The notes under the pieces: generated by a model
Told to the model about the DNA's origin: nothing
Database searches by the model: none
The model's input: the letters and a program-made list of their open reading frames with translations, nothing else
NCBI GenBank assembly: GCA_964522375.1
Contig: CAZFVB010000004.1
Span: forward strand, 24,528 to 79,335
Direction of reading: 5' to 3'
From: an uncultured Chloroflexota bacterium
Lineage (GTDB): Bacteria; Chloroflexota; UBA11872
Length of the DNA stretch: 54,808 nucleotides
Made by a program: the position numbers and the translations under genes
Part shown: piece after piece, positions 37,791-48,157 of the stretch
Layout: each line of letters begins with the position of its first letter
Position numbering within the stretch: position 1 is the stretch's first letter

Positions 37791-38258
37791 TTACAGTTCC
37801 GTCGCCCTGGCACGAACCCCTTGTACGGCTTCCGCGATGTCCTCAACGTCCAGGGCCATTTCAGCGAGTCCGACCTCCGCTTCATAGACCGAGGGTTCAA
37901 CCTGTTGGGAAATTTGGTGCTCAGTGATGTGGTAGACGGGAAGGTTGAGATTGGATCCGGCGAGCGGACCAGCCCATGTCGGATCACCGGTCGTCATGGT
38001 TTCGGCATACAAGGTGCTGCTTTCCGGTGTTGGTGTTCCCAGGAGGACCACCGTATCGTCGCTACCTACCTGCTCCAGTGTTCTTTGAATCTCTGCCTGA
38101 CCGTCCAGGTCAAGTCCGCCAGAGGCTGTTCAGATAAAGCAGTGCGTGAGTTCGAGGATCACTTCAGCGCCCACGCTTCGGGCACATTCGCCAATGGCCG
38201 TGCCGGGCACCCCATCTCGTTCACCAAGCGCAATGATCTTTTTGCCTCGAAGGTCCAT
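37791..38258 (-). CDS. grdA: Glycine/sarcosine/betaine reductase selenoprotein A (155 aa, Sec43)
   Basis: Manual translation: MDLRGKKIIALGERDGVPGTAIGEC...THCFI-U(TGA 38130-38132)-TASGGLDL...AETMTTGDPTWAGPLAG...LPVYHITE...EMALDVEDI. Shows the GrdA CxxU motif and the GDPT(F/W)AGPLAG signature. AAGGA precedes the ATG. The track shows only the last 86 aa. Confidence 0.95.
38091..38124 (-). promoter_or_regulatory. SECIS-like hairpin of grdA
   Basis: After UGA: CUCUG-GCGGA-CUUGACC-[UGGAC]-GGUCAGG-CAGAG. 7-bp upper stem, 5-bp lower stem, apical loop starting 23 nt after the UGA with G at position 2. Confidence 0.8.
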
Positions 38259-38287
38259 GTGCTGATCCTTGTTCTTTCTGCCGACCA

Positions 38288-39748
38288 CTAGAAATTCTGA
38301 TCAGGGTTAGATTCTAATATAAGCGAGAGACCATCAGACAGCTGGGTCATACGTCCAAGAAAAAGACTCCCTTTCGCGAGGAACATCACGCGTCTCAGAT
38401 CCCTATGTTTTAGCCCCTCGATTGCGTGCGCCATGTACGGGATGGCGGACGCAATATGTCCTTGCGTAGGAGAAAACCCGGGTAGGCCACGAGCCCGGAC
38501 AAACTCATCCCGGTCACTGCGGTCAATCTCACCACGAATAGCCGCTAGGCCGGCAAGCAGACGATAGTTACGCATGGCAACATCGCCGCTCCCCGAGGGT
38601 TCGGTAATGTCCGGATCATGAAGTTCCGTGGCAAAGCGATCGATGTCTGAAAACTGCAAGTCCGCGCTGGCCAGCGGCTTTGCTACGAGATGCTCCAGTA
38701 TTGCCTGTTGTGACGAGCCAGCCGCCACTGGGTGTTTCCCAATGACGTCCATACGCAGGAGGGGCGACACCCCATCATCGGCATCAAGCAGCATGGCGAC
38801 GCCTACCAGCACGTCTTCCAGAACAGGCATTTCGTGCTTAAGGTGACCTTGGAATTTCATGCCAAGCTTGGCCAGTGAAGCTCCACCAACCACGACAACC
38901 TTGGATTCAACACCTGCCGCAATGAGTGACGCGCCAAGCATCAGCGCATGTACTGGACCGCAGCAAAAAGCCTTCGTATCCGACCCTGTGGCTGTGTCGC
39001 AACCACACATTTCCGCGATGGCTTTCGCTAAGTTGCCTCCACCGCGCTGATACCGTTCACCCACAGCTTCCTCGCCACTGTTCAGCACATAATCGATCGT
39101 GGATGGATCCTCCCCGGAATCCCGAAGAAGTGACCGCAGAGCAAAAGCTCCCGTCGTCTTGCATGCAAGATTCTCCAGCAATACGGCAGCGCTCAGACTC
39201 TCGTCTTCATCGTGATCTCGGCTAATACATCCGACCAGATCGCCGTCGGGTCGAAGAAGGGGCAACGCGGTCCCCGCTGCCACCTGCTGTTGAATCGCCT
39301 TACGTGGGTGGCCAGACTCCAAGCAGGCTAGATCAGCAACTGTCACCAGGGGATTGCCCTCTAAAGACTCTCTAATCTGGGCTGCAAACACCTCCTCGAG
39401 CCACACTAAATCAAAGCGATCGGAAACCTTTAGGAGGCCAAAGAATTCATCTCCGGAAACAATCTGGCCGTGGGGATGTCCTTGTTGAGCCTCACCATCA
39501 AGATGACGGTAATACGGTCGCTTCCGATCCCAAAGTCGCTCCGGCGTCAAACTCCCTAACAAAGCACGGTGCGGCGGGTATCGAGCCGCATCCTCGAAAC
39601 TTCGAAGAGAGGCCGCGAGTTGTCCTTCGAGCGTCGCATCTTTTTGGAGTTCCCGTACTGGCTTTGATCCATATCGAACCAGGCCTGGCGTGTGCGCCAC
39701 GAAGAACCGGGCGGCCTTGATAACGGGCCGTGGCTGACTCGTACTCAA
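38288..39748 (-). CDS. grdC: Glycine/sarcosine/betaine reductase component C subunit beta (FabH/thiolase-like fold)
   Basis: HTPGLVRYG, HDEDESLSAAVLLENLACK, SGEEAVGERYQRGGGNLAKAIAE, FCCGP, GFSPTQGHIASA and KGSLFLGRMTQLSDGLS motifs. TTGA overlap with the upstream gene. Confidence 0.93.
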   Translation of the reverse strand: MSTSQPRPVIKAARFFVAHTPGLVRYGSKPVRELQKDATLEGQLAASLRSFEDAARYPPHRALLGSLTPERLWDRKRPYYRHLDGEAQQGHPHGQIVSGDEFFGLLKVSDRFDLVWLEEVFAAQIRESLEGNPLVTVADLACLESGHPRKAIQQQVAAGTALPLLRPDGDLVGCISRDHDEDESLSAAVLLENLACKTTGAFALRSLLRDSGEDPSTIDYVLNSGEEAVGERYQRGGGNLAKAIAEMCGCDTATGSDTKAFCCGPVHALMLGASLIAAGVESKVVVVGGASLAKLGMKFQGHLKHEMPVLEDVLVGVAMLLDADDGVSPLLRMDVIGKHPVAAGSSQQAILEHLVAKPLASADLQFSDIDRFATELHDPDITEPSGSGDVAMRNYRLLAGLAAIRGEIDRSDRDEFVRARGLPGFSPTQGHIASAIPYMAHAIEGLKHRDLRRVMFLAKGSLFLGRMTQLSDGLSLILESNPDQNF

Positions 39749-41049
39749 TAGTCAATTGCGCTTAGATTGTTATAGCCGTAGTGATCGTCATACCTGCGTG
39801 GGACCGGCATTCGAGCGGTCGCGGGCATCATTTGTTTTCGCATGGGACCATCCAGCCCACTCCCACCCGGCATTTCCTGCAATCCAATCACGCGCTTCAT
39901 CTCCGGAGCTTCCGGGAATTCCTGAACAGCCGCCTGGTAAAACCCGGTGCTCACAATCGCGTCCGCTTCAGGAATGGGCTCGAGCATGGTCGGCGCTCCG
40001 TCATAGGAATTATCTTCACTGGTGAGGAAGACGGTCTTAATGCCCATATCTTCACAGGCCTCGATCGTACGAATGATTTCGATAAATTCATTTCCACCAG
40101 CATCCCATGTCATTAAAGCCCCGTCGGCTCCCAGCATCTTCGCCAACTTGGCTGCCTGCTTGCCAACCAACTCCTTTTCAGCCCACGTTGTCCACTCCGT
40201 ACGAACAACGACCACCCCCAGAAAATCAATATCCTGTCCATGCCGACGGCACAGGTCGAAAAGCACAGGATTGTTTGACATGGTCCATGAGGTCGCAAAT
40301 CCCGTTCGATATGGACCGGTGACCGCCCCATCCAAGATCTCGTTGGGATGCATGAGCCATGGTGGGTCCAGGTACCCACGCCCATAGGTCGCGTTGCCAA
40401 ATGTCGCCGCCGACCCCGACATAGCCTGGGGTGAATGCAACCCCATGAGATATGCGACTTTTGGCAGGTTACTGCTGACCTGGGAAAGCTCAAACACCTC
40501 TGTGTCCGGAGGATCGAGATCTATGACGGCCTCTGCCAGCAGGTCGCTCACGGTGAGGGTCGCTCCATGAATAACTTGATTTTTCTCGTGGATAGGAAGC
40601 GAAGATTTGGGCTCAACTACCAGCCCAAGATTCACCAGGGATCCGTATGGCATCACATCAGCCCACGGCCCCACCATATCGAGAAACATAAACACGTGGT
40701 CATGGCCGGAGTCATGCCATCCAACACTTGATATCTCGACCAGAGCCATATTTGTGAGCCGATGCGTGCGACCACGACCAACCATTTGAGCCGGGCGCCC
40801 ACACATTCCTGGATATACCTGGCCCGGCCCGTCAACTTTCACCATAGGCTCAACTACATCCCGAACAGGCCACAGACGCACGGCTTCCCCAGGCATGGCG
40901 ACTTCCAGATCGACACTCTCAATCAACCCGTCTGACATAAGCGTACGAAGCAGTCCTTCCCGATCTACCGTCAGCACTCCGTCGCGCCAGGCGGTGGCCG
41001 ACCCAAAAACCACCTCCCTAACTGGAAAACGACCGACGTCAAGACGCAT
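39745..41049 (-). CDS. Glycine/sarcosine/betaine reductase component B proprotein (GrdE/GrdG/GrdI family)
   Basis: MRLDVG..., PVRDVVEPMVKVDGPG, PNEILDGA...NNPV, GQDIDFLGVVV, KMLGADG and GIKTV motifs. The start overlaps the grdB stop by 11 nt. Confidence 0.9.
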   Translation of the reverse strand: MRLDVGRFPVREVVFGSATAWRDGVLTVDREGLLRTLMSDGLIESVDLEVAMPGEAVRLWPVRDVVEPMVKVDGPGQVYPGMCGRPAQMVGRGRTHRLTNMALVEISSVGWHDSGHDHVFMFLDMVGPWADVMPYGSLVNLGLVVEPKSSLPIHEKNQVIHGATLTVSDLLAEAVIDLDPPDTEVFELSQVSSNLPKVAYLMGLHSPQAMSGSAATFGNATYGRGYLDPPWLMHPNEILDGAVTGPYRTGFATSWTMSNNPVLFDLCRRHGQDIDFLGVVVVRTEWTTWAEKELVGKQAAKLAKMLGADGALMTWDAGGNEFIEIIRTIEACEDMGIKTVFLTSEDNSYDGAPTMLEPIPEADAIVSTGFYQAAVQEFPEAPEMKRVIGLQEMPGGSGLDGPMRKQMMPATARMPVPRRYDDHYGYNNLSAIDY

Positions 41050-42382
41050 GACTTGCATCCGTATTAGTCGGCAGCGCCTCGGTATCAGGATCAAACAGCG
41101 TCGGTTCAGTCACGGACGTTTCCAGTGCGCGCAGTGCGGCGCTTGTGATCTTCACCCCATAGGAAAAATCATCATCGGCACTTAGTTCAGGATTTCCACA
41201 GACATGCTCGATCCGACACCCCCGTACCACGCGACTCTGACCCGTAACCATCGGCAAACCGTGGATTGCTGAAATCATTGCCACAGGGATACCAGCTCGC
41301 TCGATCTCCTTCGCTATCGTTGCACCGCAACGATTACAGGTTCCTCAGGTTGCGACGAGCAGCACGCCATCGACCTTACCTTCCTGCAGTTCCCGGGCAA
41401 TACCTTGGCCGAGCACCTTGGCTTGAGCCACAGGGGTCCCGGTTCCGGCCGTGGTGAAGATTGAATCGTAAATCCTCCCAATCTTGCCTTCGCTCTCCAA
41501 CAGCCGGGCTTGCGCGAGTGGCAGGACATAGTTTGGGTTCTCATTAACAAGGCCGTTGAAGTAGCCGCCGTGAAAGGCCTCCCACCGCACGCGCTCAAGG
41601 GAATCGATGCCATCGACCGAGTGCCGGTAGTAGTGTTGGGAGTGACCGTTGGTGGCGCCATGTGGATTTCCCTTCGGGATCAATCCGCCGCTGCTGACCA
41701 GGCCAATCGTGGCGCTCGCAACGCTCGCCACCGGTGGAGCCGGCGTGACCTCTTCAGGTGTTCGGTAGGGGATCTCGGTCTCGAACGGATCACCTCGCAA
41801 TTTGGCCATGAGCATGTTGGTGGCTCTCTCGCTCCCCGGACGTTGACGCACCCAGGGCCGACGTTCTCGAGTTGGGATATACCCGTCCATTTCAGCCGGT
41901 CCCCGGCCCTCGCCAGTGCCAAGTTTGTACGCCAGTTTCCACATCGCACTAAGCGCCCGCGCCATGTCGGCTGCCGTTTCTTCAGTTCGGATAGCAAGAA
42001 CACCGCTGCGGTATATGCTCAAACCCGGATTCTCGGGATGCATGCCAGTGACAGTCGGAATTTCAAGCTTGGCAGCCACGTGGCTCACGTGGCTACAGGC
42101 CAGGCCATAGCGGCCGGACCCAAAGGCAGGACCCGCAACCACAACGTCAGGGCGTAGATCCTTCAGCATCTGAAGAAGCGACTCACTTACTTCCTCAGTT
42201 TGTTCGTTAAAGGTGTTGTCACCACAGATGATGGTCGCCTTTAGTGAAGCCGTGTCACCCATTAGATTCACAAGAGCACGGGCGGCACCTTCAGGATGTG
42301 CGCTCAGACTGAGTTCGTGGTTCGCAGCTTCCTCTCCGCCGATGCCGGCAAAGAATTGATTGAGATAATGCACGACCTGCAT
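41039..42382 (-). CDS. grdB: Glycine/sarcosine/betaine reductase selenoprotein B (GrdB/GrdF/GrdH family; 447 aa, Sec346)
   Basis: MQVVHYLNQFFAGIGGEE, AGPAFGSGRYG and HGGY motifs. VDGVLLVAT-U(TGA 41345-41347)-GTCNRCGATIAKEIERAGIPV continues in frame into track ORF 41039-41284, giving the UxxCxxC motif. Confidence 0.95.
41316..41334 (-). promoter_or_regulatory. SECIS-like hairpin of grdB
   Basis: Perfect 8-bp stem AUCGUUGC-[GGU]-GCAACGAU. The loop starts 19 nt after the UGA and begins with G. Confidence 0.85.
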
Positions 42383-42524
42383 CGATGATCTTTGCCCTTC
42401 TTTTCATCCGTAGGATTGTCAGACACCGAAACGATCTTAGGTTTTGAGCAGTTGTTGAGCAAGGTCACCCCGGCACACTGTCCACCACATGAGATAACCG
42501 TCGATCGACTCAACGTGTTCCAGT

Positions 42525-43904: not shown

Positions 43905-44882
43905 TCATGCGGCGGAGACCTTGCTTACTCCCAACTCTTCCATCACGCGAAACAGGTCCTCTTTAGCCCCATCTGAAACCGCTTGGAACGGAGGGCGCAT
44001 CGGGCCTCCGTATAGACCCACATACTCAAGAGATGCCTTGACCAGGGCAGCATGATGGTAATAACCATGCGAGCCGCCATCACCTGTATACGTGCCACCG
44101 AACCACTCCATGTAAGGAACCAATGTCGAGTGCAGCCGATCTGCGGCCCCATAGTCACCCGTCTCAAGCAAGTGGAAATATTCGAGTTCAAACTCGGGCC
44201 ACCAGGTGAGTGGGGCAGAAATAAACCCTGTCGCTCCATGCATGTGGGCAACCGTCGATGTGAACCCTAGAGAGTTATCGATAAACACAAAGCGGTCGGC
44301 GTAGCGGTCCAACGCCACTACCATTTCGTCGAAGATTCCCGCACTCCCGTACTTGAGCGACACGATACCTGGGAGTTCAGCGAGTCGCTCAATCAGGGGG
44401 ATCGTCAATTTGGTGCCGAGGGTTCCTCGCCACGACTGATCGTAAATCATGATGCCCGCATTAAGGGATTCGGAAATAATGCGGTACCAGTCGTACATCC
44501 CCTGTTCATCAATTTGGTAATAACACGGTGGGGGGATCATTACGTAACGAGCACCGGTATCAATAGAACGCTGACCTAGCTCGATGACACGGTCAATGTT
44601 CAACCCGGCAACACCGGCCACGACCGGGAAGGCATCACCGCCCGTCTCTAAGGCGATCCCCAACATCTCCTGCTGCTCTTCGTCAGACAGGCTTAGGTAT
44701 TCACCCGTGCCACAGGGGGCAATGGCGAACCCATTGCCAGTGCGAACACCCGCGTCGACCAGGAACTTCAGATTCGATCGCAACGCGGTCACATTCAAGC
44801 GCAGGTCGTCGTGAAACGGCGCCATGACGAGAGCCACAGGGCCTCGAAGTTCATCCTTAATGGCCTTCATGTCCAATGCCAT
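43905..44882 (-). CDS. Dihydrodipicolinate-synthase (DapA/NAL) family lyase/aldolase
   Basis: CGTGE, IMIYD and IVSLKYG (Schiff-base Lys) motifs. Start at ATG 44882 or 44885 after GGGGG. The track start (45044) overlaps the tRNA. Confidence 0.9.
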   Translation of the reverse strand: MALDMKAIKDELRGPVALVMAPFHDDLRLNVTALRSNLKFLVDAGVRTGNGFAIAPCGTGEYLSLSDEEQQEMLGIALETGGDAFPVVAGVAGLNIDRVIELGQRSIDTGARYVMIPPPCYYQIDEQGMYDWYRIISESLNAGIMIYDQSWRGTLGTKLTIPLIERLAELPGIVSLKYGSAGIFDEMVVALDRYADRFVFIDNSLGFTSTVAHMHGATGFISAPLTWWPEFELEYFHLLETGDYGAADRLHSTLVPYMEWFGGTYTGDGGSHGYYHHAALVKASLEYVGLYGGPMRPPFQAVSDGAKEDLFRVMEELGVSKVSAA

Positions 44883-45038
44883 CATCCCCCCGTTCAATGA
44901 CCACACATTTCCGGCAAGCGCTTTGTGTTCTCTGGCCACCGGAGCCGGAGTATACAGTTCTCCGTGAATTTCTCTGCAAGCTGACCCGGAAAAGACCCGT
45001 GTGCAGTAAGGACCAATTGCTGTCAGCTCGTCAACACT

Positions 45039-45114
45039 TGGCACCCCCGGCAGGATTCGAACCTGCGACCCACGGCTTAGAAGGCCGTCGCTCTGTCCAC
45101 TGAGCTACGGGGGC
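45039..45114 (-). tRNA. tRNA-Arg (anticodon TCT), CCA encoded
   Basis: GCCCCCG-TAGCTCAGTGGACAGAGC-GACGGC-CTTCTAA-GCCGT-GGGTC-GCAGG-TTCGAAT-CCTGC-CGGGGGT-GCCA. 76-nt cloverleaf. Confidence 0.97.
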
Positions 45115-45226: not shown

Positions 45227-46174
45227 CTAGCGGTACCCGTCTTCGAGACCAGATACGTCCTGACCAGGGTCCATCAATTCAACAAGGTTTGTTGAAGCAA
45301 GTTCGGCGCGCCGGCTTGCAAGGCCGTCCTCATATGTGGGCATGTCTACTTGGTAAAGAACACCTGTGGGAATACGATCCCCCCACTCAAAAGATTTCGC
45401 GATAGCAGCCTGCTGTTTCGCCACGATCTCATCCGCATTGCCTGCGTCCGCAACCCGCCCATCAAATCCTTCCTCAGACAACTTGTAGACGCGCTGGCTC
45501 CCGATGTCAGAGCCTCTAAAAAAGTCGACCGTCATCAAATCGTTATAGATAGGACACGGCTGAAGAATGTCCAGGAGGGCGGTGCCGCGATGTTGGATGG
45601 CCTGTAGGATCAAGTCCACTAGTTCAGCTTGAGCCATGGCATAACCTCGCGCTACAAAGGTGTAGCCACTGGCAATCGCTAGGCCAATAGGATTCACGTT
45701 GGACTGGATCGACGGTTCAGCCATGGACTTTGTCTGGACACCCCGTCGCATCGTTGGAGCGGCCTGACCTTTTGTTAGGCCATAGACACCATTGTTGTGG
45801 ACCAAGTACGCGAAATTGACATTCCGACGACCCGAGTTCACAAAGTATCCGGCACCAATGCCGTATCCATCACCGTCACCACCCGCCACCAAGACTTCGA
45901 GGTCCCGGTTTGCAAGCTTGACACCCGTAGCCACGTTTAAGGCTCGACCATGCAGTGTGTGCAAACCATACGTGCCAATGTAATGCGGAAGCTTTCCAGA
46001 GCAGCCAATGCCAGAAATAACTGCAATCTCATGCGGGGGACGACCAAGCTTGGCAAGCGCCTGCTTCACCGCACTAAGGATTCCAAAGTCCCCGCACCCA
46101 CCACACCAATCGGGATGGGAATCATCAACACCGAACGACTTCGCCGTCAACTCTGAAGATGCAACTACAGCCAT
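45227..46174 (-). CDS. korB: 2-oxoacid:ferredoxin oxidoreductase beta subunit
   Basis: WCGGCGD, SGIGCSG, HTLHGR and TPP motif GDGDG...NNGVYGLTKGQ. The 2-oxoglutarate specificity is inferred from the adjacent sucCD. Confidence 0.92.
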   Translation of the reverse strand: MAVVASSELTAKSFGVDDSHPDWCGGCGDFGILSAVKQALAKLGRPPHEIAVISGIGCSGKLPHYIGTYGLHTLHGRALNVATGVKLANRDLEVLVAGGDGDGYGIGAGYFVNSGRRNVNFAYLVHNNGVYGLTKGQAAPTMRRGVQTKSMAEPSIQSNVNPIGLAIASGYTFVARGYAMAQAELVDLILQAIQHRGTALLDILQPCPIYNDLMTVDFFRGSDIGSQRVYKLSEEGFDGRVADAGNADEIVAKQQAAIAKSFEWGDRIPTGVLYQVDMPTYEDGLASRRAELASTNLVELMDPGQDVSGLEDGYR

Positions 46175-46194
46175 TTGTTAATCATTTCTGCCAT

Positions 46195-48054
46195 TTATGG
46201 GTGGGACAGCACGAGCCGACCAGCGTCGGAGGTGTGATGGGTGGTTAAGGCTTCAACAACCTCGTCCTCAGAAAACGGTCGACCGTCATATTTCAGGGCT
46301 TGGCGATGCAACTGAATACCGGTCTGTTCAGCAATTAGCATTCCCAACTGGCTCATGTAATTGTCCTCGAGCACGACTGCTCGAGTTGCCGAGGCCAAGA
46401 ACTCGCTCACCGCCTTTGTCGGAAAGGGGCGGAGCATCTTGATCTGAAGGAAGTTAGCAGAAATCTTATGCTCGGACTTTAATACGTGCAACGCATCAAT
46501 AATGGGACCTCTTGTTGATCCCCAGCCTACAACGCTGATCTCGGCTTCCCTAGGGCCAATCAACTCGTACTGCCACTCGTCAGAAATTTCCTGCAGAGCC
46601 AAGTCCAGCTTGCCCATTCGTTTTTCCATCTGAGCCATTCGGTTTTCAACCTGTTCGTCAATACGCCCACGTTCAGTGTGTTCATCACTCGTAGTGACAA
46701 ACGCACCACCAGGTGTCCCAAACAACGCTCGGGGACTAATGCCAGATTCAGTAAGGGCGTGTCGTCGATAGGAGCCTTGCCCGTTAGAGCCGTTTGACCA
46801 TATTTCTCCACGATCGATTGGAAGCTCCTCTAGCCCCAGCCCATCCTCGGTTACCAAAGAATTGGCAATGAACTTGTCAGCAATCACAACCACAGGCATC
46901 TGATATCGATCCCCCCAATTGAAAGCCATATGCGTCATACGGGCAGCGTCACGCGCATCACCCGGTGCTACCACCATATGAGGGAATTCGCCATGGGCAG
47001 GTTGCAGTGCAAATCTAAGGTCTTGCTGTGCTTGGCGGGTAGGTAAGCCAGTACTTGGACCTCCACGTTGCCACAGCACAACAACAGGACCCGGAGCTTC
47101 CGTAATTGACGCAAAGCCAATGCCTTCTGCCATGAGACTGAATCCAGGCCCAGCAGTCGATGTAGATGCGCGCACGCCAGCGTGTGCCGCCCCCACGGCC
47201 ATATTCATTGAGGCGATTTCGTCTTCGGCCTGAAGGACCACGATGGGATAGTCGCCTTGATGCTGTTCCAGCATGACGCTTTCATCGGAAGCAGGAGCGA
47301 TTGGGTAATACGTTTGAAAGACACATCCAGCATGGAGCTTTGCAATGCCAACCGCATCAACACCCTTGATCAGCATGTGCTTCTTGCGGTCTGGCTGTTC
47401 CTCCAAGGAAACGTGGAAGCCCTTATCAGCATGGGCTTCGTGCGTAGCTTTCGCCGCACGCTCTAAAACAGCACGGTTGAATTCCACCATGGCCTGATGA
47501 CGGGTGGGCAATCGTTCAGCTACGACGGCCACGACATTGGCCACATCAAAGCCGAGCAGTGCGCAGCTCGCAGCGATGGGCACCATGTTCCGCATCACGT
47601 TATGCCGGCGGGCGTTGTACTCCTGTCCCATCCCCTCCACGGCCTCCTGAACAAGATCGTCATAGGCCAGTTCAAGCACGTGAATATCGTCACGTGTTAT
47701 GGCGTCCCTATCTACTTTGGCCGCCGTATCAACGACCACCACGCCACCAGGCGCCACCCGATGCAGATGGCCACCATGACGTTGGTAATCCTGGTGAGGA
47801 TCCGTCCCCAACAATGTTTCCGCATCGAGCGCAAGCAACAAATCAATCGACTCAACGTGGGAGTGAACAGGACGGTCGCTCGTCCGCACCCGATAATTAA
47901 TGTGACGACCCATGATGTTCGAGTGATATTCAATATTGGAGAACACATACAAGCCAGCCCGGACACAGGCCTTAGCAAAAACCTCGGAAGACGTATTAAC
48001 CCCACCGCTCAGCGCAGGGCCACCAATCATCCACGAGAGATTGTTTTTCACCAT
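46195..48054 (-). CDS. korA: 2-oxoacid:ferredoxin oxidoreductase alpha subunit (gamma-alpha fusion)
   Basis: EYHSNIMGRH, YPIAPAS, QAEDEIA, TSTAGPGFSLM and QRGGPSTGLPT motifs. Start taken at ATG 48054. Confidence 0.93.
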   Translation of the reverse strand: MVKNNLSWMIGGPALSGGVNTSSEVFAKACVRAGLYVFSNIEYHSNIMGRHINYRVRTSDRPVHSHVESIDLLLALDAETLLGTDPHQDYQRHGGHLHRVAPGGVVVVDTAAKVDRDAITRDDIHVLELAYDDLVQEAVEGMGQEYNARRHNVMRNMVPIAASCALLGFDVANVVAVVAERLPTRHQAMVEFNRAVLERAAKATHEAHADKGFHVSLEEQPDRKKHMLIKGVDAVGIAKLHAGCVFQTYYPIAPASDESVMLEQHQGDYPIVVLQAEDEIASMNMAVGAAHAGVRASTSTAGPGFSLMAEGIGFASITEAPGPVVVLWQRGGPSTGLPTRQAQQDLRFALQPAHGEFPHMVVAPGDARDAARMTHMAFNWGDRYQMPVVVIADKFIANSLVTEDGLGLEELPIDRGEIWSNGSNGQGSYRRHALTESGISPRALFGTPGGAFVTTSDEHTERGRIDEQVENRMAQMEKRMGKLDLALQEISDEWQYELIGPREAEISVVGWGSTRGPIIDALHVLKSEHKISANFLQIKMLRPFPTKAVSEFLASATRAVVLEDNYMSQLGMLIAEQTGIQLHRQALKYDGRPFSEDEVVEALTTHHTSDAGRLVLSHP

Positions 48055-48157
48055 CTCGCTATCCAACCAGGACAAAGCGAAGCTGCATCATGCGCACTGG
48101 TCCGTCGTGAAAACTATTGAAAGGTCTGCTCATTATGGGGCTTTGTCGACGGTTCGC

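Follow-up and report, generated by a model that had tools for sequence, protein, structure and literature searches.

The window analyzed here is a 54,808-nucleotide stretch of DNA from an uncultured Chloroflexota bacterium (GTDB lineage Bacteria; Chloroflexota; UBA11872; GenBank assembly GCA_964522375.1, contig CAZFVB010000004.1, positions 24,528 to 79,335). Its minus strand carries a complete coding sequence of the selenoprotein B family (41039..42382), which runs from an ATG at 42382 to a terminal TGA at 41041..41039 and has 447 codons when an in-frame UGA is counted as selenocysteine (Sec) 346. This UGA, at 41347..41345, is the sole internal TGA of the frame 42382..41039 and opens the redox motif U346-G-T-C349-N-R-C352 (41327..41347, minus strand), a UxxCxxC motif that reads U-G-[TS]-C-[NTH]-R-C in homologues. 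In the list of open reading frames (ORFs), the frame is cut into a piece of 345 amino acids (aa) at 41345-42382 and one of 81 aa at 41039-41284 with a GTG start at 41284, and the two are bridged by exactly 20 sense codons, GTCNRCGATIAKEIERAGIP. Automatic gene callers split the gene as 345 plus 81, 79, or 70 aa in every public metagenome copy that we found, so that the 101 codons following the UGA (41039..41344, minus strand) appear as a separate ORF of 70 to 81 aa. The gene sequence is present in many marine plankton and seawater metagenomes, and a sequencing error is ruled out because the identical TGA and the hairpin described below occur in four independent marine metagenome contigs. The gene also contains a near-perfect palindrome, AGCCACGTGAGCCACGTGGCT, at 42074-42094 (codons for S-H-V-S-H-V-A), for which no function is suggested.

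Read through the UGA, the protein matches the Pfam family PF07355 (GRDB) with 373.8 bits (cutoff 22) and TIGR01918, the model of the selenoprotein B of glycine/betaine/sarcosine/D-proline family reductases, with 412.4 bits (cutoff 65.45) over residues 2-431. For comparison, we used 80 loci from GTDB species genomes, one metagenome locus (L087, 83% identical), and the window itself; several loci carry two copies, which brings the set to 84 genes drawn from more than ten phyla. Every one of the 84 has TGA at the Sec column.

If UGA346 were a true stop, the locus would hold either a pseudogene or a split gene, with the 345-aa protein followed by an independent 81-aa protein initiated at GTG 41284. 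The uniform split in the annotation of metagenome copies speaks for this possibility, as does the fact that TGA is the commonest genuine stop in the window, where 17 of 41 genes, this one included, end in it. The same count rules out a global reassignment of TGA (genetic code 4 or 25). Against termination, selection on the protein is equal on either side of the UGA: relative to L087, the window has a dS of 1.11 before and after it, with a dN/dS of 0.10 before and 0.09 after. For four further loci (L001, L002, L003, and L010), the downstream dN/dS values are 0.07-0.16. The peptide encoded by the 20 codons that lead from the UGA to the GTG is conserved, with synonymous change free at K, E, I, and E, and the family profiles align through the UGA and across this gap as far as residue 431. 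A stop would also sever the catalytic UxxCxxC motif, and the same arrangement is found at all 84 loci, including those of cultured glycine reducers. We therefore regard termination at UGA346 as extremely improbable. Contigs from two seawater metatranscriptome runs match the 5' end of the gene, its post-UGA end, and the grdA gene of the same operon (including a UGA of its own, see below) with 100% identity and no mismatch (window 38069-38262, 40757-40934, 40967-41147, and 42258-42391), which suggests that the operon is expressed in the sea.

Ten nucleotides past the UGA, the codons AAU CGU UGC GGU GCA ACG AUA hold the sequence AUCGUUGC-GGU-GCAACGAU, which runs from the second and third bases of the Asn codon through Arg, Cys, Gly, Ala, and Thr to the first two bases of the Ile codon. 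It forms a stem-loop (41316..41334, minus strand) with a perfect 8-bp stem, AUCGUUGC/GCAACGAU, and a 3-nt GGU loop, and its conserved core is the inner 6 bp, CGUUGC/GCAACG. The hairpin was tested as a selenocysteine insertion sequence (SECIS) with the Rfam covariance model. RF01990 (SECIS_4) matches in full, model positions 1-38, at 41307..41344 on the minus strand, beginning at the first base after the UGA, with 45.5 bits (gathering score 38) and an E value of 1.9e-7 for the whole window. With the codon usage of the window, the peptide N-R-C-G-A-T would be written in precisely this stem-forming set of codons with a probability of ~0.003. The significance of the hairpin comes from the SECIS_4 match, this codon choice, and its conservation across the 84 loci. 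Its rarity was dropped as an argument, since perfect 8-bp hairpins occur at 7 loci in the window (2.45 in shuffles), and the folding energy of the 71-nt region, with a nonsignificant z score of only −0.8, was given no weight.

SECIS_4 matches the same position in the window relatives L001, L003, and L087 and in the operons with glycine riboswitches of Peptostreptococcus faecalis, Thermohalobacter berrensis, and Clostridium oceanicum. Because these Firmicutes operons are matched and the SECIS_4 consensus translates to the Bacillota peptide GTCTRCGATMVKE, the model is in effect the SECIS of the selenoprotein B family. The SECIS of Escherichia coli fdhF is likewise a hairpin within the coding region, directly 3' of the UGA, with ~11-nt spacing and a G and a U in the apical loop. 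The window element resembles it in coding location, spacing, and apical G and U, but the fdhF element belongs to another Rfam family, and the window stem is short and perfect, with a 3-nt loop and without the bulged U.

Synonymous codon choice sets the stem apart from the rest of the gene. Normalized codon entropy was calculated from the codon alignment for the 79 degenerate columns in which the amino acid is at least 90% conserved. Only four columns have values of 0.14 or less, namely, Arg351 (CGT in 81/84; entropy 0.09), Cys352 (TGC in 84/84; 0), Ala354 (GCA in 80/82; 0.08), and Thr355 (ACG in 75/79; 0.14), while all remaining conserved columns use varied codons and lie between 0.65 and 1.0. 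Cys349, three codons upstream and outside the stem, serves as an internal control and is encoded by TGC in 47 cases and by TGT in 36; the glycine codon of the loop varies as well (GGT 37, GGC 35, GGG 11, GGA 1). The synonymous sites of the stem are frozen because the same bases encode the CxxC part of UxxCxxC.

The pattern of substitutions points to base pairing. By pair counting on the DNA alignment, 90.8% of the cells form a pair, compared with 20-63% when the 3' arm is slid, and each of the six core pairs is present in 95-100% of the sequences. All three sequences with CGC for CGU have a compensating G on the opposite arm (U-A to C-G), and none is broken. Pair 15-31 has nine compensatory cells, changes on both sides are seen in 12 cells, and the covariation score was reached by 0 of 500 shuffles. 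The few G-U wobbles found on the sense strand fit a stem formed in the sense-strand RNA. The outermost two pairs are confined to Asn-type sequences (AAU...AUN), of which the window is one, and its stem therefore reaches 8 bp; the Bacillota motif (UGTCTRC) has Thr in place of this Asn.

An earlier note on this DNA, made from the sequence alone, had joined the two ORFs into one frame through 20 sense codons, read UGA346 as part of UxxCxxC, and described a perfect 8-bp hairpin with a GGU loop in the N-R-C-G-A-T-I codons. The ORF coordinates, the TGA at codon 346, and the hairpin at 41334..41316 agree with it exactly, and its proposal that the same bases supply both the CxxC peptide and an RNA signal is supported by the SECIS_4 match and the frozen codons. 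It had also suggested examining synonymous-site conservation across orthologs and had named a nonconserved hairpin in a host without selB and selC as evidence against its reading. The outcome was strongly positive, with four stem codons almost fixed, compensatory pairs, and a hairpin conserved across the 84 loci.

Conservation of the hairpin could in principle have another cause, such as a DNA-binding palindrome, a pause or attenuation signal, or codon preference. In favor of such causes, perfect 8-bp hairpins are not rare in the window, the folding of the wider region is unremarkable, and the amino acids are themselves conserved. Codon preference cannot account for it: CGT, TGC, GCA, and ACG are shared at this site by organisms that otherwise differ greatly in codon usage, and elsewhere in the gene the codons of the same amino acids vary freely. 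The G-U wobbles and compensatory changes indicate RNA pairing on the sense strand rather than a DNA signal, the spacing to the UGA is fixed, the curated SECIS_4 model is satisfied, and one homologue without the UGA has lost the stem. Taken together, we judge a cause other than recoding to be highly improbable.

The homologue without the UGA (L088, 6001-7347) lies on a metagenome contig of a 71%-GC organism and is full length; its Sec column holds Ser (TCC). Its stem codons are CGC and GCG, and the resulting C·A mismatch halfway along the stem breaks the hairpin. Its locus contains a GrdE-like gene and has no GrdC or GrdA gene downstream; L088 may be an inactive or differently acting relative. 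Another full-length homologue, P0004, a possible Cys form, has C at the Sec column, but its DNA is not on record. From the GOS data, 75 Cys forms have been reported (PMC2398784).

The locus is thus very probably a single selenoprotein-B-type gene in which UGA346 is decoded as selenocysteine by means of the SECIS hairpin of the family. The frame, the UGA, the hairpin, the family membership, the conservation at the RNA level, and the coding selection downstream of the UGA are demonstrated, and SelB binding and actual Sec insertion are inferred from them. Several points weigh against it. None of selA, selB, selC, and selD was found in the 54.8-kb window, all of whose larger ORFs were scanned; the metatranscriptome contigs leave the UGA346 site uncovered, and the runs may contain DNA; the hairpin departs from the fdhF element in having no bulged U, and its third loop base is variable; and the non-Sec control consists of one sequence only, L088.

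The first of these points would also suit read-through of UGA346 without Sec, by a near-cognate Cys or Trp tRNA or by leaky suppression, in a host that has no Sec machinery and in which the hairpin is a leftover. A leftover hairpin would be expected to decay, as it has in the Ser homologue, yet it is intact in both the window and L087 despite near-saturated synonymous sites (dS 1.1). Furthermore, two UGA genes, each with its own hairpin, are retained in one operon, and the Sec column is TGA throughout the comparison set. Read-through without Sec is consequently very unlikely, and decoding of UGA346 as Sec is the reading adopted in what follows.

The gene is followed on the minus strand by three partners. 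A GrdE/GrdG-like subunit gene (39745..41049; PF09338; a gene call of 434 aa) shares 11 nt with the end of the selenoprotein B gene. In the alignment at the Cys loop, the Cys that would yield the pyruvoyl group was not found in this partner: residues ~255-275 contain TGPYRTGF-ATSW, compared with SGNCVSACDK in 28 Bacillota-type partners. The Cys loop is likewise absent from the partner in 35 loci with the selenoprotein B gene placed before the GrdE-like gene (B-E order), and nine others have a single Cys (GKCTW). The GrdC gene, encoding the beta subunit of component C, occupies 38288..39748 (NF040746, 586.6 bits versus a cutoff of 450), with a start at TTG 39748 or at 39700 as given by the gene caller. 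Selenoprotein A, GrdA, is encoded at 37791..38258 and scores 185 bits against NF040748 (cutoff 130) once read through its own in-frame UGA at 38132..38130 (T-H-C-F-I-U), at which gene callers split this gene too. A two-part hairpin follows at 38124..38091, where none of the Rfam SECIS families reaches its threshold.

A tblastn search with confirmed GrdD, the alpha subunit of component C, found no copy in the window, nor did any B-E-order locus have one in its flanks. Verified GrdD directly follows GrdC only in Bacillota and Synergistota loci, and the organisms with B-E-order loci may encode it at another site of the genome or may do without it. With the Rfam models, no glycine riboswitch was found in the window or in the relatives L001, L003, and L087. 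Such riboswitches are present upstream in canonical Bacillota grd operons (L056, 4096-4194; L066, 4032-4140; L060, 6005-6074).

Upstream of the cluster lie an M24/DoeA-like hydrolase gene and a DapA-like gene. A substrate link to these two was considered and dropped, as neither is conserved in L087 or other relatives. The longest DapA-like ORF (43905-45044, minus strand) overlaps a tRNA-Arg(TCT) gene (45039-45114, minus strand) by 6 nt, so that translation probably starts further downstream, and the protein predicted by gene callers has 332 aa. The tRNA gene stands between the DapA-like gene and genes for the alpha and beta subunits of a 2-oxoacid:ferredoxin oxidoreductase (45227-48075, minus strand), and genes of the latter type also lie near the grd-like cluster of the Dehalococcoidia relative L001 (2733-5500).

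GrdB is a long-known selenoprotein, also recovered from marine metagenomes (PMC13188914, PMC2398784, PMC3091704), and the motif of selenoprotein B is listed as UxxC / UxxCxxC (PMC13188914). With GrdB, GrdF, and GrdH, the proteins B specific for glycine, sarcosine, and betaine, of Peptoclostridium acidaminophilum and Clostridium sticklandii, the window protein shares the Pfam/TIGR family, the UxxCxxC motif, the SECIS_4 hairpin, an operon with GrdE-type, GrdA, and GrdC genes, and an equivalent Sec position (346 of 447 in the window; 350 of 436 in GrdB and 352 of 440 in GrdH of C. sticklandii [PMC3091704]). It differs from them in several respects. Identity to the Bacillota proteins is only 41-44%, and the characterized gene order is E-(A)-B-C-D, compared with B-E-C-A and no GrdD nearby in the window. 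The equivalog cutoffs were missed for GrdB (TIGR01917, 380.8 versus 602.2 bits), GrdF (NF040794, 405.5 versus 800), and GrdH (NF040795, 344.7 versus 775). The published GrdB/GrdF motifs, GPxF[NF]AGRYG, AHGGxD / IHGGYDR, and TxGNxTxV / TTGTGT (PMC9751293), are lacking as well, and the window protein has GPAFGSGRYG, FHGGYFN, and TAGTGTPV at these sites. A sequence search of the PDB yielded no solved relative. On profile scores and motifs, the protein is best assigned to the broad selenoprotein B subfamily only; the selenoprotein B identity given by the earlier note holds at that level (GRDB, TIGR01918).

Two further systems of the family bear comparison. PrdB of D-proline reductase is homologous to the C-terminal half of the window protein and has Sec in UxxC, but it is only ~240 aa long and lacks the N-terminal half; the match of the window protein to TIGR04483 is 69.8 bits (cutoff 300). 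Betaine reductase (GrdH/GrdI) has an unprocessed partner, and the window partner is similarly devoid of the Cys that yields the pyruvoyl group. The betaine enzyme, whose substrate cannot form a Schiff base, is not known to have a cleaved Cys in its partner. Of the three equivalog models, however, GrdH gives the window protein its lowest score, and the protein falls outside the Bacillota clade.

In a maximum-likelihood tree, the window protein groups with L087 (support 100/100) and next with a Dehalococcoidia metagenome-assembled genome (100/99). These belong to an 18-member clade (100/95) of Chloroflexota, Rokubacteria, Nitrospinota, Entotheonellaceae, Binatia, and Methylomirabilia, which is separate from a 30-member clade containing the Bacillota proteins. 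The non-Firmicutes loci have the order B-E(-C-A), the motif UG[TS]CNRC, and mostly a partner without the SGNCVSACDK loop, with 35 loci of this type, whereas the 28 Bacillota-type loci have the E-B order, UGTCTRC, and the Cys loop. Several paralogous pairs of selenoprotein B and GrdE-like genes are present in Dehalococcoidia genomes (L014, L035, L042, and L070; OZ220681, OZ244715, and OZ253497), with up to three or four pairs in tandem at L014 and three separate loci on one chromosome. These pairs suggest a diversified family of substrate-specific units.

For the window gene, we propose the following course of events. During translation, the UGA at codon 346 would be decoded as selenocysteine while the mRNA just downstream folds into the hairpin, with its conserved 6-bp core CGUUGC/GCAACG (8 bp here) and a GGN loop ~10-12 nt after the UGA. 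By analogy to E. coli and Moorella, SelB-GTP carrying Sec-tRNA(Sec) would bind this hairpin and deliver Sec before release factor 2 terminates; the spacing rule and the SelB contacts that we assume are those of E. coli fdhF. The 447-aa product would then form a pair with the GrdE-like subunit encoded next to it and would act together with GrdA, which would also contain Sec, and with GrdC. We infer the chemistry of Sec346 from work on GrdB and PrdB, for which a nucleophilic attack of Sec on the alpha-carbon of the substrate, followed by resolution to a selenenylsulfide by a Cys of the C349/C352 type, has been hypothesized (PMC10298544, PMC3091704). The earlier note had called the attack on the substrate carbon known; in the same literature it is a proposed, unproven mechanism, put forward for PrdB as well (PMC3091704). 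The partner subunit has no pyruvoyl precursor, which would make a direct attack, with no Schiff base and of the kind assumed for betaine reductase, the more plausible variant here.

Members of the uncharacterized clade that has UGTCNRC, the B-E-C-A order, no pyruvoyl Cys in the partner, and no nearby GrdD or glycine riboswitch are spread over Chloroflexota, Rokubacteria, Nitrospinota, Binatia, and Tectimicrobiota. It is tempting to speculate that the substrate that they reduce is neither glycine, sarcosine, nor betaine, although we consider this tentative and rather unlikely at present. If it were true, an unrecognized selenium-dependent pathway of reductive C-N (or C-X) cleavage would exist in abundant open-ocean Chloroflexota, with direct attack of Sec346 on the substrate and no Schiff base.

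The recoding mechanism and its signal are already known and catalogued in Rfam; what is new is a misannotated gene from an uncharacterized marine clade. The frozen stem codons provide a clean case of dual coding for protein and RNA, and the presence and apparent transcription in seawater of a non-Firmicutes clade of the enzyme add modest interest. Because annotation cuts both the selenoprotein B gene and the GrdA gene, metabolic reconstructions of this marine lineage miss two selenoproteins and a selenium requirement.

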